Below, piece by piece: positions 40,063 to 58,658 of a DNA stretch of 64,000 nt. How positions within the stretch are numbered: the first letter of the stretch is position 1; each line of letters opens with the position of its first letter. Source of the DNA: a virus. The stretch lies in the IMG/VR virus record IMGVR_UViG_3300014720_000016. The stretch is one strand, 5' to 3'. The notes under the pieces were generated by a model. The model did no database searches, had not been told where the DNA came from, and was given only the letters and a program-made list of their open reading frames with translations. The position numbers and the translations under genes are program-made.

Positions 40063-40100
40063 GGATCGGGGCAACCCGGCTTTAGGCCAGGCCCGTGCTG
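40063..40100 (-). promoter_or_regulatory. Repeated 38-nt hairpin motif, copy 1
   Basis: CAGCA-CGGGCCTGGC-CTAAA-GCCGGGTTGCC-CCGATCC. Confidence 0.75.
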
Positions 40101-40333
40101 CCTGGTGCCTGTCGAAACTCAACCTCTGGACGCAGCCTCTCTACAAGGGCCTGCAAGTACTCTCTTTTCTTATCCATCATCAGCGCCTTGTTCAGGTGTG
40201 CGCGAACAGCCTCGATCTGCTCCGCAGAAGGGATCGGCTTGGCTGCCTTGCCCGTGCCCTGTGTCCAGCCATCTGGAGCTACTGCATTGGCAATGGTACG
40301 GAATTCTTTTTCGCTTAGTCCCAGGTAGTTCAT
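40082..40333 (-). CDS. Hypothetical protein
   Basis: ATGA coupling; its stop codon lies in the motif loop. Confidence 0.6.
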   Translation of the reverse strand: MNYLGLSEKEFRTIANAVAPDGWTQGTGKAAKPIPSAEQIEAVRAHLNKALMMDKKREYLQALVERLRPEVEFRQAPGSTGLA

Positions 40334-41202
40334 CGCTTATCCTTTCCAAGTTTCATTCGCGGAATCCTCTTCTGGAGGCCACCCTGGTAGCCAAAGAAGT
40401 AGCGGTACATTCGACGCTGGATAGCCATGCCAGCATGGCTAAGGCAGATGTCCGAAATCCGGCTGGCTACTGCGGGTGACTGCTCGGCAAGGGCAGCCTG
40501 AGACATGTAGAAGAGGACTCGAGGCGTAAGCATATCTCGAAATTCAGAGTCGAAATAGTTCTTGTTGTGTTCGCATCCGATATAGGGAATGACAGGATCG
40601 CTGTGCCAGAACTGGCCAAGATTTAGCAGGGATAGGCGAAGAGCCTCAAGAAACGCCACGTTTGCTAGGTCAACGGCGAGGACCGCTCCGCGCTTTGCTT
40701 TTTCAAGGTCAGCGCATACGACGGCTAGCAGATCAGGGATATTGCCTGAGTCAGAAACCGTGTCTGCTGCTGGTGGAACCACTCCGCACAGATAATCTTC
40801 CATGCTGGAGTTGCCTTCTTCGCCGCCATTGCCAGCGGAAGATTTTTCTACGATATCGGCGATATAGCGCGTTCGCTTGCGGGATGAATACTCGCGATTG
40901 AGATCATTCTTGAAGGAAATCTTCAGATAAGACTTGAATACTTTTAGAAAATCAATATCTGCGTCGGCGACTTCGACAAGCCCCTTGATAGTCTCGTCCG
41001 CTAGCTGCTTCGTATGGAGCACCCCGTCATCAAACTTCTTGGAGATAAAGAAAGCTTTGGCCTGCCATTCGTCTACGCACGCCCGCGCATCAGGCACCCG
41101 GTAGCCAAGGGCAATCTTGATCAGGGCTGGTCGGATAGATTCGAAGATGTTTGGAATCTCTTCCGCCAAGCGGATGCCGTTGTTCTTTGAGCTTACTGTC
41201 AT
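40330..41202 (-). CDS. Hypothetical protein; possible divergent sigma factor
   Basis: IRPALIKIALGY..D...DE..KAF...KKFD...FKSYLKISFKNDLNREY..RKR resembles sigma70 region 2. Confidence 0.4.
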   Translation of the reverse strand: MTVSSKNNGIRLAEEIPNIFESIRPALIKIALGYRVPDARACVDEWQAKAFFISKKFDDGVLHTKQLADETIKGLVEVADADIDFLKVFKSYLKISFKNDLNREYSSRKRTRYIADIVEKSSAGNGGEEGNSSMEDYLCGVVPPAADTVSDSGNIPDLLAVVCADLEKAKRGAVLAVDLANVAFLEALRLSLLNLGQFWHSDPVIPYIGCEHNKNYFDSEFRDMLTPRVLFYMSQAALAEQSPAVASRISDICLSHAGMAIQRRMYRYFFGYQGGLQKRIPRMKLGKDKR

Positions 41203-41441
41203 TTTTCCTCATTCATTTTAACTGATTTCAGATAGAAGTTAATAATTCCTTCTTCTAGAAAGGCATCATCGGAGCCTCGAGTAATAGCGGATTTCCTGCT
41301 GGCGAGCGCAGACACCACTTCTTCATCAGAAGCAGCGAGCGCTACTAGCTCAGCTAGTGACTGCACTATGGCCGCACTCCTGAGCGCATGATTTTTGGCA
41401 AACCCGGCGTCAGCGGCAATAGTCTGTTTTAGTTCGCTCAC
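41199..41441 (-). CDS. Hypothetical protein
   Basis: Overlap-coupled. Confidence 0.55.
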   Translation of the reverse strand: MSELKQTIAADAGFAKNHALRSAAIVQSLAELVALAASDEEVVSALASRKSAITRGSDDAFLEEGIINFYLKSVKMNEEK

Positions 41442-41737
41442 ACCAAGCCGCCTTCCCGCAAATCATCCAGCACGCCGCTTACCTTTAACGCTGCGTCCGT
41501 TCCGCCATCTTCTATAACGCAGCCTTGCGCCTCCATCCAAAGGAAGGCATATTCTGCCGCCAGCAGCGCATCGGTAGTCGCCTGCAGTGTGTTTGCCAGT
41601 GACGCAATTAGCGAGGCTTGCTGGATATTACCGGATTGCAACGGCACCGAGCCGCCATTTGCATCTGTTATGCGAGCCTGGCTGCCATCAGATACAGCAT
41701 TCCACGGCAGTGGGTGATTTACGAAAATTCCCATCAT
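41438..41737 (-). CDS. Hypothetical phage protein
   Basis: HPLPW...ITDANG pattern; coupled. Confidence 0.6.
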
Positions 41738-41982
41738 TTTGCGTGCCGGTATACGATCCTACCCTTGGTAAGGTCGTAAGGGCTAACCTCTACGTCTACC
41801 GTATCTCCTAGGGTAATCATGATTGAGTTCTTGCGTAGCTTGCCGCCAGGATAAGCGGTGATACTAAATTGGCTATCCCCGTGCTTAACGTCAACGAAAA
41901 TGATCGAGTTGTTGACGTTTGTTACGGTTCCTGTTAGGCGTACTTTATCGCTATTGCTATTGTCCATTGATCTCTCTTTCAT
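41734..41982 (-). CDS. infA: Translation initiation factor IF-1
   Basis: [28 protein letters not shown]. Confidence 0.92.
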
Positions 41983-42335
41983 ACGAAAATCTTGTTATTT
42001 ACAAGCCTGGCAAAGCTAGCGGCTGTGATTGGTTCCGCGTTTTCTGCCAGACAAAAGCAGTCCATTTTATACGGGTTGTAGCTGACTTGCCGGCTAGCCG
42101 CGGGGGCGCTGCCGGTAACGGTACCCACTACAAAGGCGTGTACATTCTTCCTCTTCTCTGCCAACACCTTTAGCCGGCCCGCTTGGCGAACAACAAATTG
42201 GACATTTGCCAGCTCGATGCTCGCCACCAGGGCAATTACTAGCCCGGTTTTGCAGCACTGTACAGAGAAATTGCCGGTGTGCAGGTTTCTATAAACCCGA
42301 ACTCGGGTGCCAGGCTGTACGGGGTCAGTCGTCAT
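41979..42335 (-). CDS. Conserved phage hypothetical protein
   Basis: [33 protein letters not shown]. Confidence 0.7.
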
Positions 42336-42672
42336 GGATTTCCTCGGCTGTAATTTCATCACTATCGCCTTCGGAGTCTGAATCATCCTCCGAGGATTCT
42401 TCTGGCAGGGAAGCGAAATACTGATCTAGCAGCTCTACCGCTCGCAGGAATTTTTTTGCATGCTGTACGGTATTGGGGGTAAATACCGAGTGCAGAGGGT
42501 TTAGCCCGTTTTCACCGCCATCGTCTTGTTCGAGGAGTCTGGCAAAATTAATGATATCAAACCCAGGATCCGATACTTGACGAATAATTCCCTCAAGCAG
42601 GATCTTTTTGCTCAATTCTTTAGCAGAGGAGTAAAGAGTCAGCTCTTCTTTGTCATCTAACTTGTTTTCCAT
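42325..42672 (-). CDS. Hypothetical protein with an acidic tail
   Basis: ORF in operon. Confidence 0.55.
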   Translation of the reverse strand: MENKLDDKEELTLYSSAKELSKKILLEGIIRQVSDPGFDIINFARLLEQDDGGENGLNPLHSVFTPNTVQHAKKFLRAVELLDQYFASLPEESSEDDSDSEGDSDEITAEEIHDD

Positions 42673-42683
42673 AATGAGGCCCT

Positions 42684-42977
42684 ATGTTGAATTTTAAACT
42701 GTTTGTCAAAGCCGATGATGAAGCTGCCGCTCCGGCACCCGAGGCTCCTGCTGATTTACCGCTTGCTGATCCTGCCGCAGAAGCTGGTTTACCGCCCGAC
42801 ATGGCAGCTGGGATGCCGCCTATGCCACCTGGAGCTGCTGTACCTGAGGTGCCAGAGAAAGATCCTATCGAGGCGATCAGGGCTCGTTTAAAGGGAGCGC
42901 TTGGCAAAGAGGCAGAAGATGAAGATCTGGATATTGCATCTGAAGACGTAACTGAAAGCGGGGTTTTCAACGGTTAG
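42684..42977 (+). CDS. Pro/Ala/acidic low-complexity protein; possible internal virion protein
   Basis: GAGG RBS; MLNFKLFVKA N-terminus. Confidence 0.6.
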   Translation: MLNFKLFVKADDEAAAPAPEAPADLPLADPAAEAGLPPDMAAGMPPMPPGAAVPEVPEKDPIEAIRARLKGALGKEAEDEDLDIASEDVTESGVFNG

Positions 42978-43389
42978 AAATCTCCTCCTGGCACATTTTT
43001 AGCAGCCGACTGAGCACCGGAATACGGTGCTCTGTTTTTTGCTCCGCGACATGCAGCATCCCGATGCCGGCGCTTTTCAGCATGTCAAGTGCATTACTTA
43101 CTGCTTGATTTTCTAGTAAGCCTTCGATTGCAGGCGACCGCATGGCCAACTGGCCAGTAAGGGCCGGAGTGGTTATCAGTAGCCGGGCCACGTCACGCAG
43201 AACCTGCTCATTCTCTAGCGAGATATCACTAAGTAGCGCCGCGATTCGCTGCGCGTCCTCTCTCATGCTTGCAGGAGGTTCCTCGTCCGCAGACTCAAGA
43301 GCAGCAACAATACGCGGGAGAGGAAACTCTTTCATAAGGGCATATGCAATCTTCAAACTCACGACTTTCGTTCCTTTATCATTTGCCAA
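42967..43389 (-). CDS. Hypothetical protein
   Basis: Follows the FtsK-like gene. Confidence 0.55.
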   Translation of the reverse strand: MANDKGTKVVSLKIAYALMKEFPLPRIVAALESADEEPPASMREDAQRIAALLSDISLENEQVLRDVARLLITTPALTGQLAMRSPAIEGLLENQAVSNALDMLKSAGIGMLHVAEQKTEHRIPVLSRLLKMCQEEISNR

Positions 43390-44375
43390 ATCGACTTGGG
43401 TGCGACCTCAATCGCACCTGAATTCATCATGTAGCCACGGAATCGCAGGCTTTCGCCTGACTCAGAAATACAAATTCCATCGCCCATCCCAGATAGATTT
43501 TCTGCTCCAGCAGTATCTAAGATAACCCGACTTGCGACAGCACTAGCTGTTCTAAATGCAACCCTGACAGGGAAGTTGGCTTTAAGTTCGCCGTTAAGCA
43601 GTTTGGCGGTTGGCGTCTGGGTTGCGCATATGGTATGGATCCCTGCTGCCCGCCCCTTCTGAGCCAGCCGCTGCATTGGTTCAAGGAACCGCTCTTTGTG
43701 TCGCCCAACTAGGTCAGCCAGCTCGTCCACTACCAGTACGACTGGATCCATTTTTTTGCCGGTTGTTTCATTCAGCCGGATTATGTCGGCTACACCAAGT
43801 TCAGCCATTTTCTGATACCGCAACTCCATGCGACCTACCAGGTCGTTCATTGCAGTAAGCACCTGGGCATCGGTCGTCAAGTGCTGGAACTTGCCGTTAC
43901 CTTTGTAGCCAGCGAACTCGCCCCATTTTGGGTCAATAGCAATAACGCTCATCTGCTGCTTAAGCGCCCACCGGATTGCCCCATTCATCCAATAGGTCTT
44001 GCCGCTGCCAGTGGTGCCCGCGACCATAATATGCGGAGCCTTGGGCAGATAGATGTTGCGATGAGTGCCGTTGGTCGCGACTCCCAGCGGAACGCAATAA
44101 AACGAAGGCCGGATCGGCAGCAGCATGCTGCTAATTCCGGTATGAAGCCAGCTGATCTTTATCTTGCCTTCGCTATAGACTGGAGATACCTGAGCCACGC
44201 CGACGCTGCTGACGAACAGTGAAAAGTCTTTTGCAATACGCTCGACTGAGGCCAGCTTGGTGCCGACGTCAGGGCAAAAGGTAAGAGTATTTTCGTATTT
44301 TTCCTGTACCAGATTGAAGTCCCGCCCCTGTATCTTATTTAGCCTCAAAAAGGCAATCAGTTTATCCATTGACAC
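43359..44375 (-). CDS. FtsK/SpoIIIE-family ATPase (motor domain only)
   Basis: PHIMVAGTTGSGKT, IDPK, MELRY, VVDELADL, AQKGRAAGIH, ATQ, SRVILD..GAE.L.G.GD. Confidence 0.9.
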   Translation of the reverse strand: MSMDKLIAFLRLNKIQGRDFNLVQEKYENTLTFCPDVGTKLASVERIAKDFSLFVSSVGVAQVSPVYSEGKIKISWLHTGISSMLLPIRPSFYCVPLGVATNGTHRNIYLPKAPHIMVAGTTGSGKTYWMNGAIRWALKQQMSVIAIDPKWGEFAGYKGNGKFQHLTTDAQVLTAMNDLVGRMELRYQKMAELGVADIIRLNETTGKKMDPVVLVVDELADLVGRHKERFLEPMQRLAQKGRAAGIHTICATQTPTAKLLNGELKANFPVRVAFRTASAVASRVILDTAGAENLSGMGDGICISESGESLRFRGYMMNSGAIEVAPKSIWQMIKERKS

Positions 44376-44532
44376 CTTGAACGCACCAAGTGCGCATCTC
44401 TAACACTGAGATTATTCTCCAGATAAAGTCGCCGTTAATCGTAAAAGCCCTTTGCAAAGCCATTTGGTGACTTGCTGGTTTTCATTCAATAGAATGACAA
44501 TCGGTAAAATCTCATTCCAAGGCGGAGTCGCA

Positions 44533-45699
44533 ATGTTTACTCTATTTAAAAAAGCAAATGATGCCACGAATCCTGGGCGAACAAATATTAAGCGCACTCC
44601 GTATGTAGACGAAGAAAAACAAGAGATCCGTAGTATACTATCTGAATACTCCGCCTCTGACGCACAAATAGGTAGCCCGTCATCTTTTGGAAAACTTTAC
44701 TCCGGCACAAAAAATGGCAATCAGGTGGCCATAAAAATAGAACCGCGCGACACTGATTCTCATGAGCACGACACACTAAAGCTTGTTCAGCATTTGCGCA
44801 CAATAGCACCAGAGAACATTAAAAAGCATCTGCCCATAGTCTATAAAGTTGCCGGCGGCAAGCGTTTCACATGGTATGTCATGGAGCTGCTACAAAAACT
44901 GCCAGAAGGCATACAGGAAGAACTGGCCGGAATAGAGTACGAGCTTAACCACTCTGGCATACAAATTAGAAAAAAACCGAACGAGAGCGAGGACGATTTC
45001 TTAAAAAGACTCGAGCAATACAAGCAAGACATACACGATGCATTGCACGCTGGCCCCGAAGAGATAAATGTTAATTCCGATTCTATCAACATCAACCTGG
45101 CCGACCCACGCTTGGCCGATGTCAGACTGGTCGAAGCAGCATTTGACAAGTGGTATACTACAAACGAGCAGCGCAGAGAGGTGTTTGATTCTGTTTGGTT
45201 TGAGCAGGATCCCGATGATTATACCTCGGCCTCCACTACCGGTGCTGACAAGGAAGGCGTGTTCCGTGACAAAATAAAAAAGGCAATCGTTGCCGATCTA
45301 ACTAATCATAGCACAAGCGGAATGATCAGTATCAAGGCTTTTGCAAAGCGGGTAACTGATGCTGTGGCGGCTACGATGAGTGGGCCGGTAGAAGCTGAAG
45401 CATGGGAAGAGATCCGATCAACAATTCCAGAGCTAATATTCGCGATAGTTAGGACCAACTGGATTCCTAGGTTCGACCCTAGCCATAATGCAGGTGGCAG
45501 GTACGAGTCGCTAGGTCGATCCATGGATCATTTACCCGAAGACGATCTTAAATCTAGGCTTCTCACTACACTTATGTGGCTGTCCGGGCACGGCTTAAAA
45601 TGGGGCGATGTTCACTCCGGCAATATAATGATGAGACCATCAACTGGTGATGTAGTAATCATTGATTACGGCCTGTATCGATTTGTCGTTCCAGGTTAA
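44533..45699 (+). CDS. Ser/Thr protein kinase-like protein with a large insertion
   Basis: GSPSSFGKLY, VAIKI, YVMELL, GDVHSGNIM, IIDYG; GGAG RBS before MFTLFKKA. Confidence 0.75.
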   Translation: MFTLFKKANDATNPGRTNIKRTPYVDEEKQEIRSILSEYSASDAQIGSPSSFGKLYSGTKNGNQVAIKIEPRDTDSHEHDTLKLVQHLRTIAPENIKKHLPIVYKVAGGKRFTWYVMELLQKLPEGIQEELAGIEYELNHSGIQIRKKPNESEDDFLKRLEQYKQDIHDALHAGPEEINVNSDSININLADPRLADVRLVEAAFDKWYTTNEQRREVFDSVWFEQDPDDYTSASTTGADKEGVFRDKIKKAIVADLTNHSTSGMISIKAFAKRVTDAVAATMSGPVEAEAWEEIRSTIPELIFAIVRTNWIPRFDPSHNAGGRYESLGRSMDHLPEDDLKSRLLTTLMWLSGHGLKWGDVHSGNIMMRPSTGDVVIIDYGLYRFVVPG

Positions 45700-45715
45700 A
45701 AGGCGCCGCCCACCT

Positions 45716-46432
45716 TTAATACAGATAAAAAGCCGTGCAGCTAGTTATGCGCATCCCATCAGGCCCGTCACCGGACGTACAGGACCAGACAACAAAACAA
45801 CCGTCTGTGCAATAAACATTAACTAGCTTTACCTGCTCTCCGGGAAATTTCTCTTTTGCAAGACGACCTAGATTATAGATATAGGTCTTGCTTATCTTCC
45901 CAGGATACTGCTTTGCGCTAATAAGCAGGATGCAGTCTTTTCCGTTATCGTCGTGACCGGATGCTAGACCATCAATCTCAACCTGTCCAAAGCTACAAGT
46001 AGTTCGCCAGTGATCCTGTAGCCGCTGGACATTCTTTAATCCAGGCAACATGTTAAAGCAACCACTGCTCATTAGTCGGGTCATCGCCGACTGCTCATCA
46101 TTAGATAGGTACTTCTTTGCAAACTCTGGCGTCTTGTCCTGTGCCGCAATAGCAGCATCTATCTGCGGCATCTCGATCAGGTTTTGATCAACTGGGACGA
46201 ACGCATATTTGCCCTTACCCACTTGCAATATGCCGTAGTCGGAAGAAAAAGGCAGCTGCTCCCGCGAGTCAAACGTATAGCGTATATCTGCGATGTTCTT
46301 GATCGACAGTCCCAGCTCAGAGCATGAGTTCTCGAGGTCAGCTTTTGAGAAGAAATAGGAGCCTCCGGTTGGAGCGTGCCCTCCGATTAGCTTTTCCCAG
46401 CAGTGCTGAATCACTCGAGAATAATGACTCAT
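45716..46432 (-). CDS. Putative PD-(D/E)XK endonuclease
   Basis: KNIADIRY.F..R..LP, DEQ, LQDH.RT, GQVEIDG, SAK. Confidence 0.55.
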   Translation of the reverse strand: MSHYSRVIQHCWEKLIGGHAPTGGSYFFSKADLENSCSELGLSIKNIADIRYTFDSREQLPFSSDYGILQVGKGKYAFVPVDQNLIEMPQIDAAIAAQDKTPEFAKKYLSNDEQSAMTRLMSSGCFNMLPGLKNVQRLQDHWRTTCSFGQVEIDGLASGHDDNGKDCILLISAKQYPGKISKTYIYNLGRLAKEKFPGEQVKLVNVYCTDGCFVVWSCTSGDGPDGMRITSCTAFYLY

Positions 46433-46836
46433 GTTGGATCTACACCTTTCTGCGAACCGGGCCAGATTGCTGATGCGCCAGATGGTGTGCCAGCAATTTC
46501 TACGATTGAATCCCAGCTAATATAGACAAAATGCAATTTCGAGCTAAAGCTCAGGCTGCCGTATACTCCAGACTCGTCAATGCCAAAGTCTGGTATGGAG
46601 TATTTCTTGTTCCACTTCAGAGTGCCTACGCCATATTGCATCATGCTATCTGGCATTTTATTGCGTGGGTGATCGGTACGAAAGACTGTTACAACAGTGT
46701 CGCCCTTCATCAATAGGCGTTCAAACATCACGCCTTGTGGCGGCATCTCGTGAGTTTCTTCTAGCAGGAATTCTATGCTAGACAGCACCCGCCGATCCCA
46801 ATCAACATGATATACACGAGTGCCATCTTTAGTCAT
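46429..46836 (-). CDS. SspB-like ClpXP adaptor
   Basis: IPDF.IDE.GV.GSLSFS....VYISWDSI...WP. Confidence 0.6.
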   Translation of the reverse strand: MTKDGTRVYHVDWDRRVLSSIEFLLEETHEMPPQGVMFERLLMKGDTVVTVFRTDHPRNKMPDSMMQYGVGTLKWNKKYSIPDFGIDESGVYGSLSFSSKLHFVYISWDSIVEIAGTPSGASAIWPGSQKGVDPT

Positions 46837-46839
46837 TCT

Positions 46840-49442: not shown

Positions 49443-49480
49443 GGATCGGCGGGGGCCGGCCTTAGCCCCGGCCCGTTCTG
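49443..49480 (-). promoter_or_regulatory. Repeated 38-nt hairpin motif, copy 2
   Basis: CAGAA-CGGGCCGGGG-CTAAG-GCCGGCCCCCG-CCGATCC. Confidence 0.75.
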
Positions 49481-49720
49481 CTACTCTTCCTCTTCGCAGG
49501 TGCCACCGTCAATTGACGGTATCCAACGCCACCACTGAGTTTTATTACGAATGTCTACTTGCATGCCCATGCTGCCGCCGCCATCGAAAAGCTCTACGAC
49601 TTCTCCATCTATATGGCCGCAATCGGTGCGGAATATTTCGTTAACTCTTGGGCACTTTATTCTAATGCGCCTGCCTACTTGCAGTTCGGAGGGATCGATA
49701 GGACGCAGTGTTTTTCGCAT
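49481..49720 (-). CDS. Hypothetical protein
   Basis: GAGG RBS; preceded by GATTAATA-N4-GCTATTT. Confidence 0.6.
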   Translation of the reverse strand: MRKTLRPIDPSELQVGRRIRIKCPRVNEIFRTDCGHIDGEVVELFDGGGSMGMQVDIRNKTQWWRWIPSIDGGTCEEEE

Positions 49721-50126: not shown

Positions 50127-51590
50127 TCACTGAGCCGGAGCCCAAATAGTCTTGCGCTCAAGAAGATCTGGATATTCCGACTTTACCCAGCTCATAAAGC
50201 TTTTGATTTGCTTAGAAATAAAAATATCGACATTATTCAGATCGCTTACTGTTGTAGCCTTCTCTGCTTCCATGCCCGTTATCCGGGCTCGCACCGCATC
50301 AGCTGACGTCTTCTTAAGCGCCTCTACCCGCATATCGCAGATGATGCTTGCCTCGTAATCATCAAGACCGGCCAGGGCTTTTAGGTTGGCGTGGAAATCG
50401 CCTTCAGCCTTAAGCGCGGCAAATACCGCATCTAGATTGTCGCAAGCCTTTAGCTTGGCCCGCTCCCTCTTTAGTGCTTCATCCTGCTGCTTAATACTGG
50501 CGGTAAGAGTCGCGCAAACAATCCGACGACGGATGGCTACCCAGTCTCGGATTACGTCCGGTACGCCTACTGCCCGAGGAACGAGCGACTCCCCTTCCTC
50601 GTAAAGGCAGTTCATGCGGTAGCTAACCTTTTTGCGTAGAAGTTTGCGGATTTTTTCGTAAGCCGAGTCGTCCTTGTATTCAATGACGATCCGATCACCA
50701 TTCGCGCCAGAAGTCTCATTACGAGTGGCTTCGATTACTCCTTCATCCTGTAACTCTGCGCATTTGCTTAGGAAGCCTGATACGCTAAACTCTGGAGCAT
50801 AGCCAGTTACCAGCAGCAGCTTGCGATCACCCTTCTTCTCAAGGCGATGTGCACATTCATAAGTAAGCTGGCCGATGCCGGTTTTCAGCAGGGCTTCTAC
50901 ATCACTCTTGGAGCTAAGTAGATTGCAGCCGAAGCCGTCTGGCGCCCGAATATGCTTAGTAGCCTTGCCCTCATCTCCTTTTGCTAGATAATCAAGAACT
51001 GCTGCGGCAACCTCTAGGATATTAAATCCCGGAAACTTGCTGGTAATCGCCATGGCAATACCGGTGCTTGAGTTGAGCAGGAGCATCGGCAGCACGCTCG
51101 GCAGGTAACGCGGCTGATCCTTTGTATCGTCGTAATTCTTCTCGTATGGAACGCTTGCAAGATCCGGCAGATCGGTGATCATGCGTCGAGCCAGAGGATG
51201 TACCCGGCTCTCAGTATAACGAGCACTGGCCGCCTCTGTAGTTGCTCCGCCAAAGTTGCCCTGACCCTCGATAAGAGGGTGGCGCTCGTTGACCATGCCC
51301 ACTAGGGAGCCGTAGGCGGCAACCTCGCCGTGTGGTGAGTAGGAGGCGATACAGTGACCGGTAATCTTCGCGGACTTAATAAACTTCGCAGTATTCAGGT
51401 CAATGCAGCTCCAGAGCAGCAGGCGCTGGATTGGCTTTAGACCATCCTCTAGCCGGGGCAGAGCGCGGTTTTGGATTACCTCGTCGCCATAGTGCTTCAT
51501 GGCGCGCTTGACGAAGTCAACCGCTGATTGTCCCACTACCACCGACTGACTAGGGGCGGCTGCACGTTGTTCTTTTTTCTTTGTAGCCAT
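50127..51590 (-). CDS. Type IIA DNA topoisomerase subunit A (GyrA/ParC-like, no CTD)
   Basis: RALP..EDGLKP.QR, KSA, YSPHG, GQGNFG, ASARYTE, NYD, P.LLLN...GIA. Confidence 0.93.
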   Translation of the reverse strand: MATKKKEQRAAAPSQSVVVGQSAVDFVKRAMKHYGDEVIQNRALPRLEDGLKPIQRLLLWSCIDLNTAKFIKSAKITGHCIASYSPHGEVAAYGSLVGMVNERHPLIEGQGNFGGATTEAASARYTESRVHPLARRMITDLPDLASVPYEKNYDDTKDQPRYLPSVLPMLLLNSSTGIAMAITSKFPGFNILEVAAAVLDYLAKGDEGKATKHIRAPDGFGCNLLSSKSDVEALLKTGIGQLTYECAHRLEKKGDRKLLLVTGYAPEFSVSGFLSKCAELQDEGVIEATRNETSGANGDRIVIEYKDDSAYEKIRKLLRKKVSYRMNCLYEEGESLVPRAVGVPDVIRDWVAIRRRIVCATLTASIKQQDEALKRERAKLKACDNLDAVFAALKAEGDFHANLKALAGLDDYEASIICDMRVEALKKTSADAVRARITGMEAEKATTVSDLNNVDIFISKQIKSFMSWVKSEYPDLLERKTIWAPAQ

Positions 51591-51592
51591 TT

Positions 51593-53437
51593 TCAGATCC
51601 CCAGCAGTTCTTTGCGGCCCGCAATATCATCGCCCATGATTCTAAGGATTTCTTCTACGTCGGTCTTGCTCCAGTTCAGCTGGATAAGGCGGCGAGTGCT
51701 GCTCATTGCGTATTCTCCAACTTCATCAGGATTAGCTTCGCCGTGGCCCTTTAGTCTTGTCACGTCGCATTTGCTGAAGTGTTTGCCGGCCTTTGCCCGC
51801 ACATCGTCCATTGTATGTCCAAACCAGCGTTGCCGCGTACCTGGCAGCGAAGCCTTGAAAAGTGGCGCGTCTACGGAGTAGATCATTCCACGCTCAAGCA
51901 GTCCTGGCATATACTTGGCAAATAGTCCGATGATCAGACTACTGATATGATGACCGTCGTGATCAGAGTCAGATAGGATTATGAGCTTGCCTATGCGCAC
52001 ATCCCCGATATTAAACTTAGAGCCAAAGCCACCGCCTACGGATGCAACAATTGCGGCGATCTCGTCATTGGCGATTGCATCAGCCTCGGAAGCCTTGAAG
52101 ACGTTAAGGATCTTGCCCTTTAGGGGCAGGATTTCCTGGTAAGATGCGTCCCTGCCCTTAACGGCAGAACCGGCTGCGCTGTCGCCCTCCACTAAATAAA
52201 GCTCGCGGAGATATGGCTTGCAGTCCGCCTCGAATAACTTGTCAGGCAAAATGCCGCGGCTAGAACGCTTAGTGGTCTTAAGATCTTTGAGTGCGGCCTT
52301 TAGATCTTTCTGAGCCTGACGCTGCTCGTATGCGGTGACTGCATTAGCCAGAAAAGCATCAACAGTTGCGGCATTTTTCCGCGCCCAGCTCTTAAGCTGT
52401 GGGACCGCTGCATCAGCAATGCTCTTGCCCAGTCCCTTGTTAATCAGCTTCTCTTTTGTCTGTGAGGAAAACTGTGGGTTCGGGTGGGAGATGTGCAGGG
52501 CGTACTGCAAGTTTTCAGTGATTTCTTTGGCCGAGCACTTGTTTTTGCAGCGTTCGAGCAGGAAGTCTACTAGCGCGCTTTCCCAGCCCGATGCATGTTG
52601 ACCGCCATCGGCTGTACGACTAAGATTGACCAGAGAAACCGAACGACCTTCGTTGGCCCATTTCCAAGCCACTGAAACGCTTGCAGTCTTCTTTTCCCCG
52701 CCTACATCGACCTCTACATCAAAGGCAGTAGAGTAAGCGCTTTCGTCGCCAAGGATGCCGGCCACGCCCTTGCAAGGAAAATCTTCGAGCGTACCACCGT
52801 GCGATAGCGAGATCTTTGTTTTGGGCAACAGGTGTGCCGCATCAGTCAGGCGACCACGAACTTCAGCGAGATTAAAACCAGATACGTCCTTGAATACCTC
52901 TCGATAATCAGGGGTAAAGCGAACAAGCGTGCCGTGCTTTATTTTTGTCGGATTATCGCCTATTTTTGCATCACGGCCCAGCATCTTGCCGCGAGAGAAC
53001 TCTACCGATGCCATTTTTCGACCACGGTATGATTCTGCATAAAAGCTCTCAGACAGAGCGTTTGTGGCAGTAGAGCCTACACCGTGTGTGCCTACCGATG
53101 TACCATAGGTGTCGTTATCAAACTTGCCGCCCGACTTGGCTGTGCCAAATACGGTAGCAAGGGTGCTCAGGCCGGTCTTGGGATGCTTCTCGTGTGGGAT
53201 TCCGCGACCGTTATCAAACACCTCTGCGCTGCGGCAGTCATCAGAGATCTTTACTGAAATGCGATCAGCATGGCCACCTATGGCCTCATCGATGCCATTG
53301 TCGATGATTTCCTTTAAGATGATGAAATGCCCGGTGGCATTCGCACCCCCTACGTACAGGCCTGGCCGCAGTCGGATGTGTGCGATATCATCTAGGACCT
53401 GAATGGAATTTGAGTTGTACTCTTTGCTTTTAGCCAT
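51593..53437 (-). CDS. Type IIA DNA topoisomerase subunit B (GyrB/ParE-like)
   Basis: EIIDNGIDE, DNGRGIP, GGKFD, HGVG, VEGDSA, PLKGKILN, DSDHDG.HI, RLKGHGE; start MAKSKEY. Confidence 0.95.
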   Translation of the reverse strand: MAKSKEYNSNSIQVLDDIAHIRLRPGLYVGGANATGHFIILKEIIDNGIDEAIGGHADRISVKISDDCRSAEVFDNGRGIPHEKHPKTGLSTLATVFGTAKSGGKFDNDTYGTSVGTHGVGSTATNALSESFYAESYRGRKMASVEFSRGKMLGRDAKIGDNPTKIKHGTLVRFTPDYREVFKDVSGFNLAEVRGRLTDAAHLLPKTKISLSHGGTLEDFPCKGVAGILGDESAYSTAFDVEVDVGGEKKTASVSVAWKWANEGRSVSLVNLSRTADGGQHASGWESALVDFLLERCKNKCSAKEITENLQYALHISHPNPQFSSQTKEKLINKGLGKSIADAAVPQLKSWARKNAATVDAFLANAVTAYEQRQAQKDLKAALKDLKTTKRSSRGILPDKLFEADCKPYLRELYLVEGDSAAGSAVKGRDASYQEILPLKGKILNVFKASEADAIANDEIAAIVASVGGGFGSKFNIGDVRIGKLIILSDSDHDGHHISSLIIGLFAKYMPGLLERGMIYSVDAPLFKASLPGTRQRWFGHTMDDVRAKAGKHFSKCDVTRLKGHGEANPDEVGEYAMSSTRRLIQLNWSKTDVEEILRIMGDDIAGRKELLGI

Positions 53438-53520
53438 TTTTGTTGTGCTCCGCATTGCTGTGTGCACAGGCTTTACACCGGGCAGCATTTAAGCCAGACG
53501 ACAGTGCAGATAATCCAGGC

Positions 53521-53976
53521 ATGAAAATAGAGAAGGTTGTGAAGCTTAGCAATCTTGGCATCCGTTTGAATATTGCTTGTGCGGGCCAGGGGGCTGCATT
53601 TATAACCAAGTTTCGCAACTACAGCTACTGGATGGACGGGGATAAGCCAGTCGATGGCAGCAAGATCATGGTGCTGGAAATCTGGGTTAACAACCGCCGG
53701 ATCATCCGCTGCCTCCAAAACGCCAACAGCCGACTGCTTTTCTGCGAAGTTGCCAGCTGGCCCAATGGCAATAAACAACAGATCACAATGGCTGATTTTT
53801 GTAGCGAAGGGGAAATGCTACCCACTGGGACTGTGTTGGAAGTTTACGAGTTCGTACTGCGCCTTTTTGAAGCACAGGCAGCTGCTCTCAAACGTCCGGG
53901 GCGTATACTTAATATAATCAAGAAGATACGCAGTTACGAAAGCCCACTATTTGCCGGCAGCCTTGATCAGTTCTAG
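53521..53976 (+). CDS. Hypothetical protein
   Basis: Start MKIEKVV; fills the gap between minus-strand genes. Confidence 0.45.
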   Translation: MKIEKVVKLSNLGIRLNIACAGQGAAFITKFRNYSYWMDGDKPVDGSKIMVLEIWVNNRRIIRCLQNANSRLLFCEVASWPNGNKQQITMADFCSEGEMLPTGTVLEVYEFVLRLFEAQAAALKRPGRILNIIKKIRSYESPLFAGSLDQF

Positions 53977-54342
53977 CCTACCGTCATCTAACCGTAGCGG
54001 TACCTCTATGCCAGAATTAACTGTTCCTTCGTAGTTCGAGGCCCAGTAAAACGCCGGAAAAGACAGGGTAACTTTCGCCAAGTCTGGGTTATCGCCGTTG
54101 CTAAAAAAAGAGAAAAATACTACCCAGGTAGATGGCTCTGACTTGATGAAGTTGGGAGTGACTATTGTGCCATCTTTATCTACCCCGATGGCGATCCTGC
54201 CGCCCTCTCCGGGCTCAGCCACTCCCCACCTATTCATCTGAGCACCGCTTACTGCCGCGTACAGCTCATCTGCGTGTTCTGGGGCAGTAAATGTGTCGAT
54301 AAATAGCTTAAGATCCCTGAACAGCAGGTCTGCCAGCTTCAT
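53947..54342 (-). CDS. Hypothetical protein (MKL group)
   Basis: MKLADLLFR; ATGA coupling. Confidence 0.6.
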   Translation of the reverse strand: MKLADLLFRDLKLFIDTFTAPEHADELYAAVSGAQMNRWGVAEPGEGGRIAIGVDKDGTIVTPNFIKSEPSTWVVFFSFFSNGDNPDLAKVTLSFPAFYWASNYEGTVNSGIEVPLRLDDGRLELIKAAGK

Positions 54343-55268
54343 ATACGAATACCTAGCTTATCAAGATGGGGGATAAATCCGAGATTTTTGCCTTTGCATT
54401 CCATTTCGATGTCGCACTTTCCAGCGGCATAATAAGCCTTCTGGTAATCGGGGATCGTATGGATCGCCCAACTATGTGCTCGGCGCTCGGTAAAGTTGCC
54501 GCCTTCAAGGCCTGGCTCTGTGTTGCTAAGATGTTGTAGCGGAAGTATGCCAGCCGGCCAGGTAGAGGCCGCTGCAAGCATTGCCTCCTCGCCACTCATA
54601 CCGCCGTCATTGAATACATGATGATGAGAATCAAAAAGGATGGGTACCCCAGATGCTGCGCTAATTGGCATCAGGTCTGCTACTGACCAGCAGTTCTCAT
54701 CATTTTCGAGGGTCAAGCGTGATCGCACATTGTGTGGCAGAGCGTCAATGCCACGAAGTAGGCGATCTGGAGAGCCGCGTTTGCCGCCGTGAATATTTAT
54801 TGCAAAATTGGTACTAAGGGCAGCGCCAAGATTGTCCATAACCATGGCGTGATAAGTCAGTTCCCTGATAGAATTTTGTACTACGGTATCAGAATCGGAA
54901 TTAAGCACTACAAACTGGCCGGGATGCATAGTTAGGCGCAGGCCTGCGAAAGCAGATTGGGCTGATTGCAGAGCGGTGATTGCTTCGCCTACCAGTTCAC
55001 TGTAGCGCGCATCTTCTGCAACCTTATCGAACAGGGGCAGGAGCGTGCTGCCTACTCGAAACAGCCCCACTCCTGAATCCCGCAAGTCGCGCGTAATTGC
55101 AGAAATGCCAGCGATATTACCAAGCCAAACACTGCGAATATGCTCGGCGCTATACTCTCCGGCCTGGAATCGCCCTAGCTGCAAAGCTCGCTCGCCAATT
55201 TTGTTAACGAACTTTGAGCCAGTTTTAGTCTTCTTTTCTTCAAGCCACTGACAGCATACTCCGAGCAT
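54339..55268 (-). CDS. uvsE: UV damage endonuclease
   Basis: FR.GS.LLP, RLTMHPGQFVVLNS, EL.YH, NIHGG, RLTLENDE, FDSHHH, QHLS, RAHS, EMECK.K. Confidence 0.93.
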   Translation of the reverse strand: MLGVCCQWLEEKKTKTGSKFVNKIGERALQLGRFQAGEYSAEHIRSVWLGNIAGISAITRDLRDSGVGLFRVGSTLLPLFDKVAEDARYSELVGEAITALQSAQSAFAGLRLTMHPGQFVVLNSDSDTVVQNSIRELTYHAMVMDNLGAALSTNFAINIHGGKRGSPDRLLRGIDALPHNVRSRLTLENDENCWSVADLMPISAASGVPILFDSHHHVFNDGGMSGEEAMLAAASTWPAGILPLQHLSNTEPGLEGGNFTERRAHSWAIHTIPDYQKAYYAAGKCDIEMECKGKNLGFIPHLDKLGIRI

Positions 55269-55277
55269 TCTTGCCTT

Positions 55278-55577
55278 TCATGCGACTTCAATACGGTATT
55301 TTGACCGCGAAGTTTCGCTTAGCTTAAGTACCAGCACGCCATTTTCTACCTTGGCAGAAACTTCGGGGTTGCCAAGGCGGTGCGTAAAGCGCCACTTGCG
55401 CTTGCTTAGAAATGGGAACTTCCTATTTGCCGTCACCCGAATATCCAGGGATGCTGGACCGGCCTCTATTTCTAGATCTTCTTTTGTGACACCCGGCAGC
55501 GGGATGCTTATAACAGTGGTGCCGTCGATGTTTTCTACGAGATAGTTGTTGTCAAAACCAGAAACAAAGTCAAACAT
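55278..55577 (-). CDS. Small heat-shock protein (Hsp20, alpha-crystallin domain)
   Basis: LPGVTKEDLEI, SAKVENGVLVL. Confidence 0.85.
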   Translation of the reverse strand: MFDFVSGFDNNYLVENIDGTTVISIPLPGVTKEDLEIEAGPASLDIRVTANRKFPFLSKRKWRFTHRLGNPEVSAKVENGVLVLKLSETSRSKYRIEVA

Positions 55578-55578
55578 A

Positions 55579-55640
55579 AATCCTCCTAGTGCAGCTGCCT
55601 GCTGCTAGGAGGATTATATTCCCGAGTTTTTATCGGTAAA
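55579..55640 (-). promoter_or_regulatory. SD-sequestering hairpin of hsp20, overlapped by a sigma70-like promoter
   Basis: AATCCTCCTAG/CTAGGAGGATT 11-bp inverted repeat; TTTACC-16 nt-TATAAT. Confidence 0.65.
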
Positions 55641-55670
55641 GGAGCCCTGTAAAAAAAACTACAGGGCTCC
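55641..55670 (-). terminator. Hairpin with a short U tract (possibly leaky terminator)
   Basis: GGAGCCCTGTA...TACAGGGCTCC followed by TTT. Confidence 0.6.
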
Positions 55671-55677
55671 GCCGGCC

Positions 55678-55911
55678 TCACTCAGCGACGCCAGCATCAG
55701 TCCCGGCAGCAGTCTCGCCCTCGCCTTCACCGGCAGTCCCAGCAGCAGCCTCGGCAGCAGGCTCAGTAGCAGGAGCGTCGCCAGCGACATCCTCCTCTAC
55801 AACTACGGGATCAGAGCCAAGATCCTGCACAACGTTAAAGAGAGTAACGCCGACGACAGCTGCAACAACGACACCGGCAGCAACAAGAAGATTCTTTTTA
55901 GACAGTTCCAT
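55678..55911 (-). CDS. Small membrane-anchored acidic protein
   Basis: KK followed by LLVAAGVVVAAVVGVTLF. Confidence 0.65.
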   Translation of the reverse strand: MELSKKNLLVAAGVVVAAVVGVTLFNVVQDLGSDPVVVEEDVAGDAPATEPAAEAAAGTAGEGEGETAAGTDAGVAE

Positions 55912-55941
55912 GCTTATTTCCTTTCAAATGGGCTAATGCCC

Positions 55942-56301
55942 TCAATCACCAAAAACAACCGCAGCCGGTGATGCCTGAGCGGCCTCATCATCATTGGCAG
56001 GCGGCGGTACAGTTGTTACAACTACCGGAGCAGCAGTAACTGAACGAGTGCGGGCTGATGCACGAGCAGCTCGCAGAGTATTGCGCCGATCCTCGTAGGC
56101 CGCGATAGCAGCAAGGAATTCTGCGCGGTCAAAAAGACGGGGCGGCTTGCCAACCCGACCAGTACGCACATGGCCAGCTGATACAAGACCAGCGTCCTTA
56201 AGAGCCTTGTTCACAAGGAGAACTGGCTTGCCGGTAAGGGCAACGATGTCCTCTACGGTAGCAAGCTTGTCACGATCATAGTTACCATCAAACTGTGTCA
56301 T
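55942..56301 (-). CDS. Hypothetical protein; possible DNA-binding
   Basis: TVEDIVALTGK...RTGRVGKPPRLF. Confidence 0.6.
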   Translation of the reverse strand: MTQFDGNYDRDKLATVEDIVALTGKPVLLVNKALKDAGLVSAGHVRTGRVGKPPRLFDRAEFLAAIAAYEDRRNTLRAARASARTRSVTAAPVVVTTVPPPANDDEAAQASPAAVVFGD

Positions 56302-56335
56302 ATCTCGGTCTTTCTGCCATTAAGGCATGAACATT

Positions 56336-56632
56336 TTATGAATGCCAAGAAGCAGTGATTTTCTTGGATCCAGTATCTGTGATAATCATAACGTCAAACA
56401 GCTCGAGCTTAATTGCCTCGGCAATGCGCTGGAGTTGCTCAACGGTGCAGCTGCCAAATGACCAATCGATCTCCCAAAGGCCTTCTTTAGCTGCTTCATA
56501 AACCAGGGCTACGAACTGGCTGACATGAATACCAAGCTCAGGAAACTCTTCCTCTGTGGCAGCCTGATGCCTTCCAGCGACTGCTGCTTGGGCAGCATCT
56601 CTCAATTCTCGTAATACAGACTTGTTTTGCAA
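56336..56632 (-). CDS. Hypothetical protein
   Basis: ORF in operon. Confidence 0.5.
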   Translation of the reverse strand: MQNKSVLRELRDAAQAAVAGRHQAATEEEFPELGIHVSQFVALVYEAAKEGLWEIDWSFGSCTVEQLQRIAEAIKLELFDVMIITDTGSKKITASWHS

Positions 56633-56634
56633 AG

Positions 56635-56877
56635 CTATACTTCCTGGTTTATAATTGCTTCCATTACTGTTTCAGGTACTAGGTCAATCAATTCATCTTC
56701 TTCATCCTTTGAAAAGTTGTTGTAGCGGCACAGGAACCTCGCTCGATGAGGCGGCTGCGCATAGAACAGGAATACGGCTCCGTCGGGGTAAACCACCGTA
56801 TATGGATCAGCGACGTCTGAGTCCGTGCTCTGGTATACAATAAAGCGCTGCGGGATAGAAATCCACTTTTCTTCCAA
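56635..56877 (-). CDS. Hypothetical protein
   Basis: GGAGG RBS, TTG start. Confidence 0.55.
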   Translation of the reverse strand: MEEKWISIPQRFIVYQSTDSDVADPYTVVYPDGAVFLFYAQPPHRARFLCRYNNFSKDEEDELIDLVPETVMEAIINQEV

Positions 56878-56889
56878 GACATCCTCCTG

Positions 56890-57138
56890 TTACTTTACCT
56901 GTATTTCGGCAAGAAGGCCTTCTGGCCAAAAAGCAAAACGCACCTCAAAGCCTGCGGCTTGTAGTTGCGCTTGAGTATTTCTTTTGCTCAGAGCATCCTC
57001 AAACCGGATGTAGCAATAACTGCCGCCATCACTACGGGTTTCCCAAGTTACCCTCGGGTGTGATGCCATCGAGCAATATCCCGGAATTAGATTGTCTTCT
57101 ATCCAGTTGCGAAGCGAGCGTTTCGTTCGCATCGTCAC
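56890..57138 (-). CDS. Hypothetical protein
   Basis: Downstream of motif copy 3. Confidence 0.55.
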   Translation of the reverse strand: MTMRTKRSLRNWIEDNLIPGYCSMASHPRVTWETRSDGGSYCYIRFEDALSKRNTQAQLQAAGFEVRFAFWPEGLLAEIQVK

Positions 57139-57154
57139 CTCGTCGCTTTCCTCA

Positions 57155-57192
57155 GGATCGGCGGGGGCCGGCTTTAGGCCCGACCCGTCCTG
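57155..57192 (-). promoter_or_regulatory. Repeated 38-nt hairpin motif, copy 3
   Basis: CAGGA-CGGGTCGGGC-CTAAA-GCCGGCCCCCG-CCGATCC. Confidence 0.75.
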
Positions 57193-57194
57193 AC

Positions 57195-57665
57195 TTACTC
57201 TGATTCTTTAAATGCAAAATGTAGAGTATCGATTAGGCATTTGCCAGACGGCAAATTATCGCTATACTCCGCCCCTCGCGGGAGATAACGTAGGGTAGCG
57301 TGTGGTACGAAGTTGGGGAATTTATCATTAATTGAAATATCAAGGTTCGATAAAACTTCTTTGATCACCTCTCGCAGCTCGTGCAGGCGCGGGCTTTCAA
57401 TGTGAACGAACCAAGGCACGCTATCGTCTTTGCCTTTAAAACAGTCAAGTTCTCCGATTTCGGCTGAAAAAGGCTTCAGACGCTGAGCAATCATTTCAAT
57501 AGCCGCTGCTGCACGCAACACTTCGCCTTCCTCTAGGTCAGGCAAGTATATGACAGATACATGCGGAGGAGTAAAGTCGTCATTCCCAATACGGCCAAAG
57601 CGCGGAAAGGCCGCCTCTATCTCCGGCGGAAAGGTACAGTATACAAAGGCATCATACTTCTTCAT
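57195..57665 (-). CDS. 2H phosphoesterase (LigT / Acb1-like)
   Basis: PPHVSV and VPHATL (HxS/HxT pair); start MKKYDA. Confidence 0.8.
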   Translation of the reverse strand: MKKYDAFVYCTFPPEIEAAFPRFGRIGNDDFTPPHVSVIYLPDLEEGEVLRAAAAIEMIAQRLKPFSAEIGELDCFKGKDDSVPWFVHIESPRLHELREVIKEVLSNLDISINDKFPNFVPHATLRYLPRGAEYSDNLPSGKCLIDTLHFAFKESE

Positions 57666-57767
57666 AGTTACTCTTTTTAAATACTGTTGAGCTACCTTTC
57701 CTAGCGGCGCGGCTTCGCGCCCGGCTCCGGGCATGGGAACATAAATAGCATTTATTAATCGGAAGGA

Positions 57768-58094
57768 TCAGGCTGATCCTAGTCCTTTGGGCAGAATTGT
57801 TGCAAACCTTGCCTCGAAATTCCTTTTATTTATCACATCTTCATCACTAAGAGACCACCTGCCAGAGTCAATAGAAACGATATTTAGATTTAGATCTAGT
57901 TCAGCTCTTACTGGTCGCCCATCGAACTTCATAGATATATCAAAATGGTGTGGATGCTTTGTGATGATAATCATCTTGCCTGGCCCTGACAGCACATGGA
58001 CCCGCTGGCCATTTAGCTTTTCAGAACTAATATGATTTTCCATGTCCTGATTTTCAAGTAGGCTGTTTATCAGGTGCATTTCATGTAGTTTCAT
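57768..58094 (-). CDS. Hypothetical protein (MKL group)
   Basis: ORF in operon. Confidence 0.55.
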   Translation of the reverse strand: MKLHEMHLINSLLENQDMENHISSEKLNGQRVHVLSGPGKMIIITKHPHHFDISMKFDGRPVRAELDLNLNIVSIDSGRWSLSDEDVINKRNFEARFATILPKGLGSA

Positions 58095-58586
58095 TCAGTC
58101 ATCCGTAAAGCTAGAAAAGCTAGCTGCAATCAGTTCTTCTACGTCAATAGTATTTGCTTCACGCGATCTCATAGCCCTTGAGACCTGATTGTAGATAGCT
58201 ACAAATAGCTCGCAAACTGTATGATACTCGGTCTTAGATAGGAAGCGCAGCACACGCTTAAAGATGTGGTCATTAGCGCTTTCAAGAGCGCGAATATAAT
58301 TGTCATCGGGCTCAACGCCGTTTTCCGTCGCATTTTTAACGGACTCAGACAGCGCAGCCCAAGATGCATAAAGGTAGCAGCAAATTGCCGGAGCGTAAAT
58401 CTTTTTCCTAAAAGAGGCAAGTGCTCCAGCCTTGCGCAGCATTGTCCTGGAGATAGGATTGCCGCCAGAGTTGTCAGTGGCTCTCGAAAGAAGTAGCGAA
58501 GCCCGTTCGCACTCATCCCAGAAAGCTGGATCAGAGGCGTGAGAAAAGAGTGACGCAAGGCGCATCATTGGCGATACTTTAAGCAA
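58095..58586 (-). CDS. Hypothetical protein (start near 58586 or 58568)
   Basis: GAGGAG RBS downstream of motif copy 4. Confidence 0.55.
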   Translation of the reverse strand: MLKVSPMMRLASLFSHASDPAFWDECERASLLLSRATDNSGGNPISRTMLRKAGALASFRKKIYAPAICCYLYASWAALSESVKNATENGVEPDDNYIRALESANDHIFKRVLRFLSKTEYHTVCELFVAIYNQVSRAMRSREANTIDVEELIAASFSSFTDD

Positions 58587-58620
58587 GTGACTCCTCTTTG
58601 TTCGCGTTGAACGGTCTGGA

Positions 58621-58658
58621 GGATCGGGCGGAGCCGGGTTTAGGCCCGGCCCGCCCTG
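58621..58658 (-). promoter_or_regulatory. Repeated 38-nt hairpin motif, copy 4
   Basis: CAGGG-CGGGCCGGGC-CTAAA-CCCGGCTCCGC-CCGATCC. Confidence 0.75.

Follow-up and report, generated by a model that had tools for sequence, protein, structure and literature searches.

The element in the window

The DNA analysed here is a stretch of 64,000 nucleotides from IMG/VR virus record IMGVR_UViG_3300014720_000016, referred to below as the window. Its minus-strand open reading frames (ORFs) form one co-oriented run that includes rIIA and rIIB, a split type II topoisomerase, Lon and GroEL. At four gene junctions of this run lies a repeated sequence element with two boxes, CCTAAA (box 1) and GATCC (box 2), which we discuss here as a candidate promoter. 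The virus is an uncultured jumbo phage of about 370 kb. Megablast searches of 50,697 phage records and 72,556 plasmids found no nucleotide-level relative of the window, and its topoisomerase II shares only about 30% identity with that of Erwinia jumbo phages.

An initial annotation, made from the letters alone, had reported four minus-strand copies of the element, and all four were recovered at the same positions (Table 1). A corrected 33-nucleotide (nt) degenerate pattern, CGGGNCNGGNCTAARNCCGG-N6-CCGATCC, fits these sites with 0 mismatches, occurs at no other site in the 64 kb and had 0 matches in 100 dinucleotide-preserving shuffles of the window. A relaxed two-box search of the window gave no additional convincing copy. 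The placement at gene junctions described in that annotation also holds. Copy 2 directly follows the TAG of its upstream ORF, copy 3 begins 2 nt past the TAA of the LigT-like ORF and copy 4 begins 6 nt past the TGA of rIIB. Copy 1 differs, as had been noted, in that its CCTAAA supplies the TAA stop codon of the 83-amino-acid (aa) ORF. The distance to the next start codon, originally put at 10-40 nt, had to be revised to about 17-53 nt after GATCC.

By scanning IMG/VR with the motif we found a complete contig of 371,675 bp (IMGVR_UViG_3300035212_003113, hereafter G001) that is collinear with the window, the nucleotide identity being about 70% overall where blastn aligns them. The minus strand of the window corresponds to the plus strand of G001 from about 100 kb on, and collinearity was checked to about 128 kb. 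All four window copies are kept, one-to-one, at orthologous gene junctions in G001 (Table 1). Further orthologues occur in partial relatives, at L003:810 for copy 3 and in L008/L023 for copy 2. IMG/VR held no further rIIA loci from more distant phages. Copy 1 is the last copy of the series both in the window and in G001; the gaps of the co-oriented run that lies 3' of it hold ordinary terminators and sigma-70-like promoters in place of the element.

Two ORFs of the window differ from the arrangement in the relatives. The 82-aa ORF after copy 3 (56890-57138, minus strand) is absent from G001 and L003, in which the element is followed by the homologue of 56635-56877, and it is the only window indel that adjoins a copy. 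A 415-aa ORF on the plus strand (44452-45699), with a weak ABC1 kinase-like match, breaks the minus-strand run. In G001 its flanking genes adjoin one another with no such ORF between them; it is a window-specific insertion.

Table 1. Element copies and selected genes of the window, with the orthologous element positions in G001.
Feature	Position	Strand	Box 1	Box 2	G001 orthologue	Context
rIIA	59410-61542	-				
rIIB	58665-59408	-				
Element copy 4	58621-58658	-	CCTAAA 58644-58639	GATCC 58625-58621	106,181	CAG...CCTAAAC...CCGATCC; between rIIB and 163-aa ORF (TTG 58586)
2'-5' RNA ligase-like (LigT-like) protein	57195-57734	-				
Element copy 3	57155-57192	-	57178-57173	57159-57155	107,665	Between LigT-like ORF and 82-aa ORF 57138-56890 (GTG 57138 or in-frame ATG 57132)
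UvdE	54339-55268	-				
Split type II topoisomerase	50127-53488	-				
Element copy 2	49443-49480	-	49466-49461	49447-49443	115,475	Variant GCTAAGG; between 79-aa ORF 49481-49720 and 135-aa ORF (likely ATG 49389)
FtsK-like ATPase	43359-44375	-				
Element copy 1	40063-40100	-	40086-40081	40067-40063	123,237	Overlaps end of 83-aa ORF 40082-40333; precedes 124-aa ORF (likely ATG 40039)
Co-oriented run 3' of last copy	22437-40054	-				Helicase, AAA, glycosyltransferase, ligase, Lon, GroEL; no element copy
Helicase	36547-38118	-				
ATP-dependent ligase	31098-32207	-				
Lon	27769-30186	-				
GroEL	23623-25335	-				

The element family and its context

To the pattern CCTAAA-N13-GATCY, G001 gave 75 forward matches and 1 reverse match, and to the reversed (non-complemented) control pattern 0 and 0. 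The scan of relatives that the initial annotation had called for shows an orientation bias of 75:1 in G001. All copies but one lie in a single arc of about 144 kb that starts at 350,795, crosses the assembly junction and ends at 123,260; the outlying copy, at 289,433, probably arose by chance. According to a crude gene map, genes of G001 are mostly on the plus strand genome-wide, including 160-350 kb, and the remaining 227 kb or so hold no element bar the one at 289,433. Because the genes outside the arc mostly share the same strand, strand does not account for the arc-only distribution, and the element marks one class of genes. The arc also contains five tRNA genes (Thr, Met, Ser, Leu and Gln, at 12,482, 18,388, 25,125, 35,619 and 35,813), all of them on the strand that the elements occupy; the window is without tRNA.

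Two subclasses share the same boxes at exactly the same spacing. The GC-rich-spacer subclass (about 38 G001 copies) has the form CAG-N11-CCTAAAGCCGG-N6-CCGATCCTG and recurs every 3.5 kb or so from 362 kb to 123 kb; the four copies of the window belong to it and are its last four. The AT-rich-spacer subclass (about 37 G001 copies, CCGGTCCTAAAAACA..CTTTTGATCCTGTTAGAC) recurs about every 350 bp between 350.8 and 365.4 kb, before tiny ORFs, and has TTGATCC or CTGATCC where the GC subclass has CCGATCC. We aligned 49 GC-type copies without gaps: 4 from the window, 38 from G001 and 7 from four partial relatives. Invariant columns are C13, C18-T19-A20-A21, C25 and G36-A37-T38-C39, and G15, C17, A22, G27, C34, C35, C40 and G42 are nearly so; C48 and G49 are each kept in 41/49 copies (84%). 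Upstream stop codons in G001 adjoin the CAG edge, and the distance from the element to the next start is variable, with a median of 34 nt. Fixed spacing with a spacer of free sequence is a signature of a DNA reader.

Two further stretches deserve mention beside the family. A mostly non-coding hub at 361,657-363,698 of G001 (L039:6641-8714) holds about a dozen copies, among them the sole reverse copy (361,888) and six tandem copies; four of the hub copies have in common the sequence that comes after them, GTCAACGGGACAACCGGGG.., a possible source of small RNAs, and neither Rfam nor tRNA hits were obtained. Upstream of the ATP-dependent ligase gene of the window, an intergenic tract of about 100 nt (32228-32332, minus strand) has at least 85% G+C and is kept in position at G001 130,814-130,938. 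It contains CCCGATCCGG and no CCTAAA box, and may be a decayed element copy or an unrelated structured region.

Outside this clade the element was not found as a repeated element, either in cellular genomes or in viral contigs. Genomes of 185,579 species, one per species, yielded 55 single hits in unrelated taxa, about the chance level for 17 specified bases, and a cellular promoter type was rejected on this ground. Multiple copies in IMG/VR occurred only in G001 and the four partial relatives. The late region yielded no half-motif class with CCTAAA alone, the extra CCTAAA copies there being coding, and no enriched 7-mer was found in the late-region gaps.

The surroundings of individual copies are compatible with a promoter. 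At 12 of 74 G001 copies (11 of them AT-type), a canonical terminator, with a strong GC stem and a T tract, ends 5-29 nt before CCTAAA, and a Shine-Dalgarno (SD) sequence and start codon follow 20-50 nt past GATCC with no sigma-70 consensus between. In these 12 copies the element is the sole conserved sequence between terminator and gene. Likewise, the four element-bearing gaps of the window contain no sigma-70-like site. Window gaps without the element, on the other hand, carry canonical terminators at about 55.65, 30.29, 27.75, 23.60 and 21.8 kb and, at 55640-55613, a sigma-70-like promoter (TTTACC-N16-TATAAT); a TTGACG…TATTCT-like sequence before the ORF that starts at 23537, downstream of GroEL, was seen by eye. 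The transcribing polymerase therefore uses normal signals elsewhere. These terminators, built of a GC stem and a T tract, lie in the gaps 55700-55560, 30310-30170, 27790-27670, 23650-23520 and 21900-21640, near the hsp20-like gene, Lon and GroEL; given the terminators and the two sigma-70-like promoters, the hsp20-like, Lon and GroEL genes, which are host-like chaperone and protease genes, look like self-contained host-type transcription units within the phage genome. A T run follows none of the four window copies. This agrees with the view of the initial annotation that the element is not a standard terminator, and we rejected an intrinsic terminator on that ground and because canonical terminators occur elsewhere in the window.

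Judged from these sequence comparisons, the element is probably a clade-specific promoter of the uncultured jumbo phage, serving early/middle gene blocks. The phage-specific promoter proposed at the outset draws good support from where the copies lie, how they are oriented, what surrounds them and their conservation in relatives. As a bipartite DNA signal it would consist of box 1, CGGnCCTAAA(g/a), and box 2, (C/T)(C/T)GATCCTG, with exactly 13 nt from CCTAAA to GATCC, and it would drive co-oriented early/middle blocks of small ORFs, tRNAs, rIIA/rIIB, topoisomerase II and others. Transcription would start some 8-9 nt past GATCC, at the conserved C-purine step (C48-purine49), a position that we infer, and the transcript would have a leader of 10-45 nt carrying the SD. 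At G001 copy 356,014, an ATG without an SD begins exactly at the C-purine position. With this step as +1, GATC would occupy -13 to -10, CCTAAA -32 to -27 and CGG -36 to -34. Host core RNA polymerase, together with a specificity factor supplied by the phage, would read the element. A Dam-controlled promoter, which the invariant GATC might call to mind, was rejected: there is no methylase of the Dam type, and GATC shows neither avoidance nor enrichment (ratio 0.96).

Hairpin potential and candidate readers

The initial annotation had the flanks of CTAAR pair into a stem. Predicted minimum free energies (MFEs) for window copies 1 to 4 are -16.8, -24.6, -24.4 and -28.0 kcal/mol, with z values against shuffles of +0.27, -1.97, -2.76 and -3.66. 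Copy 1 therefore folds no better than chance. The substitutions giving G-T/G-U pairs on the minus strand, cited for the stem as well, make a weak case: G-U pairing accounts for just 3 of the 53 pairs predicted, and folding is equally good on the antisense strand.

Across the 49 GC-type copies the hairpin is frequent and shows no sign of being conserved as such. In the best register of a 12-bp stem, 62.6% of cells were paired, compared to 61.5 +/- 1.2% after shuffling of partners (92/500 shuffles as high) and to 61.6% when the register was slid by +1 column. RNAalifold returned 0 consensus pairs, and mutual information revealed no stem pair. The covariation check suggested earlier was thus run in three ways and came out negative, and a conserved RNA structure found no support in any of them. 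In free register the copies fold with an average MFE of -18.6 kcal/mol and an average z of -1.8; z is < -2 in 21/49 copies and > -1 in 15/49. TAAA falls within an enclosed loop in 34/49 copies, the stem is absent or weak in 15/49, and the loops measure 6-8 nt. Among 32 G001 GC-type copies compared separately, native 5' and 3' arms beat chimeric arms by only 1.2 kcal/mol (49/5000 permutations), and antisense folds slightly better than sense (mean MFE -19.6 vs -17.8). AT-spacer copies reach a mean MFE of just -7.7, compared to -17.8 in the GC type, and keep the boxes and their spacing.

Because covariation is null, the antisense strand is as stable and the AT-spacer copies do with little pairing, the hairpin is not conserved as a structure, is not sense-specific and is dispensable to half the family. 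It arises largely from the conserved CCGG half-sites and the GC-rich flanks. The proposals that it is the recognised upstream element, or that the motif is mainly an RNA hairpin, are left unsupported by the AT-spacer copies and the lack of covariation. In the GC subclass, GC-rich sequence after the upstream stop and the GC-rich spacer could pair around box 1, and the resulting hairpin is probably accessory: it may provide the upstream message with a 3'-end structure that lacks a T tract, or with an insulator, as in the PeSL/PmSL cassettes of T4-type phages discussed below. It would not be the recognition determinant.

It could nonetheless be speculated that the element acts mainly as RNA within long early transcripts, where the hairpin with its CCUAAAG loop and the CCGAUCC sequence after it would be processed, stabilise a 3' end, terminate transcription with the help of a factor, or bind a protein as a divider between cistrons. 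The folding of many copies (z < -2 in 21 of 49, box 1 in an enclosed loop in most, three of the four window copies counted as better than shuffles), the slight advantage of native arms and the position of the element directly after the upstream stop codon would fit such a role. We consider it distinctly unlikely. No register covaries and RNAalifold gives no consensus pairs, the antisense strand is at least as stable and there is no G-U signature, and about 37 copies combine the same boxes with hardly any hairpin potential. Fixed spacing around a free spacer sequence points to a DNA reader; moreover, the 12 copies mentioned above lie 3' of a strong terminator, where read-through RNA would be scant, and the element has no T tract in a genome that uses canonical terminators.

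A hairpin could also matter in DNA. The virion RNA polymerase of phage N4, of T7-like descent, recognises hairpin promoters with a short stem and a 3-nt loop. The element resembles these in having a conserved sequence in a hairpin loop upstream of early genes, and a promoter in hairpin form on extruded single-stranded DNA, read by a virion-delivered phage RNA polymerase, would be consistent with the looped box 1 of most GC-type copies, with the early-type genes of the arc and with the several giant ORFs of unknown function in G001. It is nevertheless very improbable. The hairpin is missing from half of the family and does not covary, its loops are larger than 3 nt, and its copies number 76, not a few. 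Domains of T7/N4-type or multisubunit RNA polymerases were not detected in G001, a weak negative with the PF00940 control silent. The giant ORFs are without DxDGD. Recognition of the N4 type, as raised in the initial annotation, is unsupported on two of these counts: no covariation, and little hairpin in half of the copies.

Another possibility is that the element is a DNA site with a role other than initiation, either in recombination and cassette shuffling, by mini-circle exchange in the manner of PeSLs, or as an operator for a repressor or nucleoid-type protein. Such a role could account for the dense small-ORF cassettes formed by the AT-spacer copies, for the six-copy tandem array without ORFs, for the window-specific ORF directly after copy 3 and for the CCGG half-sites that flank box 1 in the GC subclass. 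We regard it as quite improbable, since the window and G001 are collinear with all four copies at orthologous junctions and most indels lie away from copies (45716-44375, 42970-42653, 41737-41199 and 55911-55678). The 75:1 orientation and the constant place upstream of SD and ATG fit a directional transcription signal. Recombination between promoters would in any case be compatible with promoter function, and in PeSLs it derives from it.

As to what might read the promoter, searches of G001 for single-subunit and multisubunit RNA polymerase domains (PF00940, PF00562 and PF00623) found none, a result that is weak because the PF00940 positive control gave no match. Three giant ORFs of G001 were scanned; none has DxDGD, two had no PHROG hit and the third matched tail-fibre families only. 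With the same caveat on the control, a phage RNA polymerase was set aside as a candidate. A MotA-like activator was rejected as well: the MotA C-terminal domain PF09158 was not found in G001, and AsiA was not searched for.

A divergent sigma factor of 262 aa is encoded at G001 177,957-178,745 (L027:1351-2139). It has weak matches to regions 2 and 4 (Pfam E 6.6e-4) and matches TIGR02937 with E 3e-6, below the family cut-off; its relatives are labelled 'sigma24 family' by the Joint Genome Institute (JGI), and a Cys4 insertion separates regions 2 and 4. An AlphaFold2 (AF2) model (pLDDT 67.9) retrieved almost only sigma factors as top Foldseek matches (best E 4.3e-4), with sigma-4 domains at TM 0.8. 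The gene adjoins a nuclease and a 2,700-aa ORF (G001 178,705-186,807; L157) that has no PHROG hit and whose homologue in a relative is without a precomputed Pfam family. This order of sigma and 2,700-aa genes is kept in a relative (L153) with a 47%-identical sigma, carried on a 241,925-bp ENA contig, in which the sigma gene stands in a run with Mre11/Rad50-like genes, trigger factor and Pol III alpha. Sigmas with 47-61% identity occur in more distant clade members, on this contig and on one of 155,736 bp.

Two other proteins were considered. A sigma-4-type helix-turn-helix protein of 191 aa is encoded inside the G001 arc, at 22,499-23,074. In the window, the 290-aa ORF at 40330-41202 (minus strand) is all-helical and has 13 homologues, only in this phage clade. 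The sole support for it as a sigma candidate is a language-model neighbour labelled 'sigma-70 family' (score 0.95); Pfam, PHROG and NCBIfam gave no hit, hhalign against the G001 sigma returned a probability of 0.3%, and its AF2 model (pLDDT 48.6) was too poor to search.

Several observations weigh against the promoter interpretation. With TAAA as -35, the boxes lie about 5 bp closer together than in the sigma-70 and sigma-28 families, and the geometry is like that of extracytoplasmic function (ECF, group-4) promoters only if GGnCC is taken as -35; GGnCC-N17-GATC then resembles group-4 promoters, and the arrangement further recalls T4 middle promoters with their -30 box. The tandem array of G001, with six copies 59-81 nt apart and without ORFs, is unusual for promoters, for which T7 A1-A3 is a tandem precedent. 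The hairpins exceed what a pure promoter would need, as seen in their mean z, their enclosed loops and the better folding of native arms. Finally, the one clear sigma gene sits with replication/recombination genes beyond the arc, and for that reason it may equally be a late sigma.

One unlikely variant goes further. The boxes may be read by an unrecognised specificity system present at the start of infection, for example an adaptor of sigma-like or sigma-4 type that the virion delivers, or a polymerase concealed in the giant ORFs. The box geometry of such a system would fall outside the known sigma families, the GC and AT subclasses would be two temporal classes of one reader, and the hairpin without a T tract would couple the upstream 3' end to firing downstream.

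A clade-specific promoter would have several consequences. The element gives a near-complete, testable promoter map, with about 76 sites in G001 and four in the window, for an uncultured jumbo-phage clade whose kin among sequenced phages do not exceed about 30% protein identity. With it, the early/middle third of the genome can be delimited and two promoter subclasses told apart, and it suggests that the phage does not use host-type promoters for element-bearing genes. Identifying the reader would add a new promoter-specificity system. A compact and highly specific element of 40 bp could also serve as an orthogonal expression signal, and it is a clean metagenomic marker for members of the clade.

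Comparison with known systems

Promoters of the sigma-28/SigD type have the form TAAA-N15-GCCGATAA or CTAAA-N16-CCGATAT. The GC subclass contains both CTAAA and CCGAT, and the initial annotation was correct in placing similar half-sites about 5 nt closer, as TAAA and CCGAT are 11 nt apart compared to 16. However, the invariant core of the element is GATC and not CCGAT, and the AT subclass is without CCGAT. On the 11-nt gap in all copies and the loss of CCGAT in the AT subclass, a host sigma-28 promoter was rejected. The resemblance is coincidental.

In T4 middle promoters the MotA box has its centre at -30 and is separated by 11-13 bp from a sigma-70 -10, and they are used through sigma appropriation by MotA and AsiA. 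The element is similar to them in that its upstream box is nearer to the downstream box than a normal -35, and in that it precedes early-region genes of a phage with rII and topoisomerase. It differs in that box 2 is not a sigma-70 -10; in addition, the MotA C-terminal domain was not detected in G001.

A mechanistic precedent is provided by the bipartite promoters of phage 7-11, which its sigma factor gp47 reads as GTAAtg-N16-aCTA; in phiEco32 the corresponding consensus for gp36 is tAATGTAtA (PMC8948821). Like these, the element has a phage-specific consensus unrelated to host sigma-70, it is bipartite with a fixed spacer as in 7-11, and its clade also encodes a divergent sigma. The box spacing differs, as does the scale: 7-11 and phiEco32 have a handful of middle/late promoters, whereas here about 76 copies are spread over an early-type third of the genome and the sigma gene of the clade lies outside the element arc.

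The closest functional analogue, as far as the comparison allows, appears to be the PeSL/PmSL elements of T4-type phages, in which a stem-loop, an early or middle promoter and an SD are repeated between small genes (Arbiol 2010, PMC2839356; Comeau 2014, PMC4122927). There are clear differences. The boxes here are CCTAAA and GATCC, not those of sigma-70 (TTGACA/TATAAT, N17) or a Mot box with a -10. In the subclass found in the window the stem lacks a T tract and overlaps box 1 and the spacer, where a PeSL stem-loop precedes the promoter. PeSLs are preferentially associated with indels and gene replacements among close relatives; a comparable link seems weak here, with 1/4 window copies adjoining an indel and four other indels not beside a copy. 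On the other hand, all four window copies are intergenic, co-oriented and placed before an SD and a start codon. The order of parts may also correspond, in that a stem-loop closing the preceding gene would come before the boxes, SD and start; a separate terminator stands 5-29 nt upstream at 12 of 74 G001 copies. Dense runs between small ORFs are common to both. In both cases repeated, co-oriented intergenic cassettes occupy the early, plastic part of a large genome of myovirus type that carries rIIA/rIIB and a topoisomerase II in split form.

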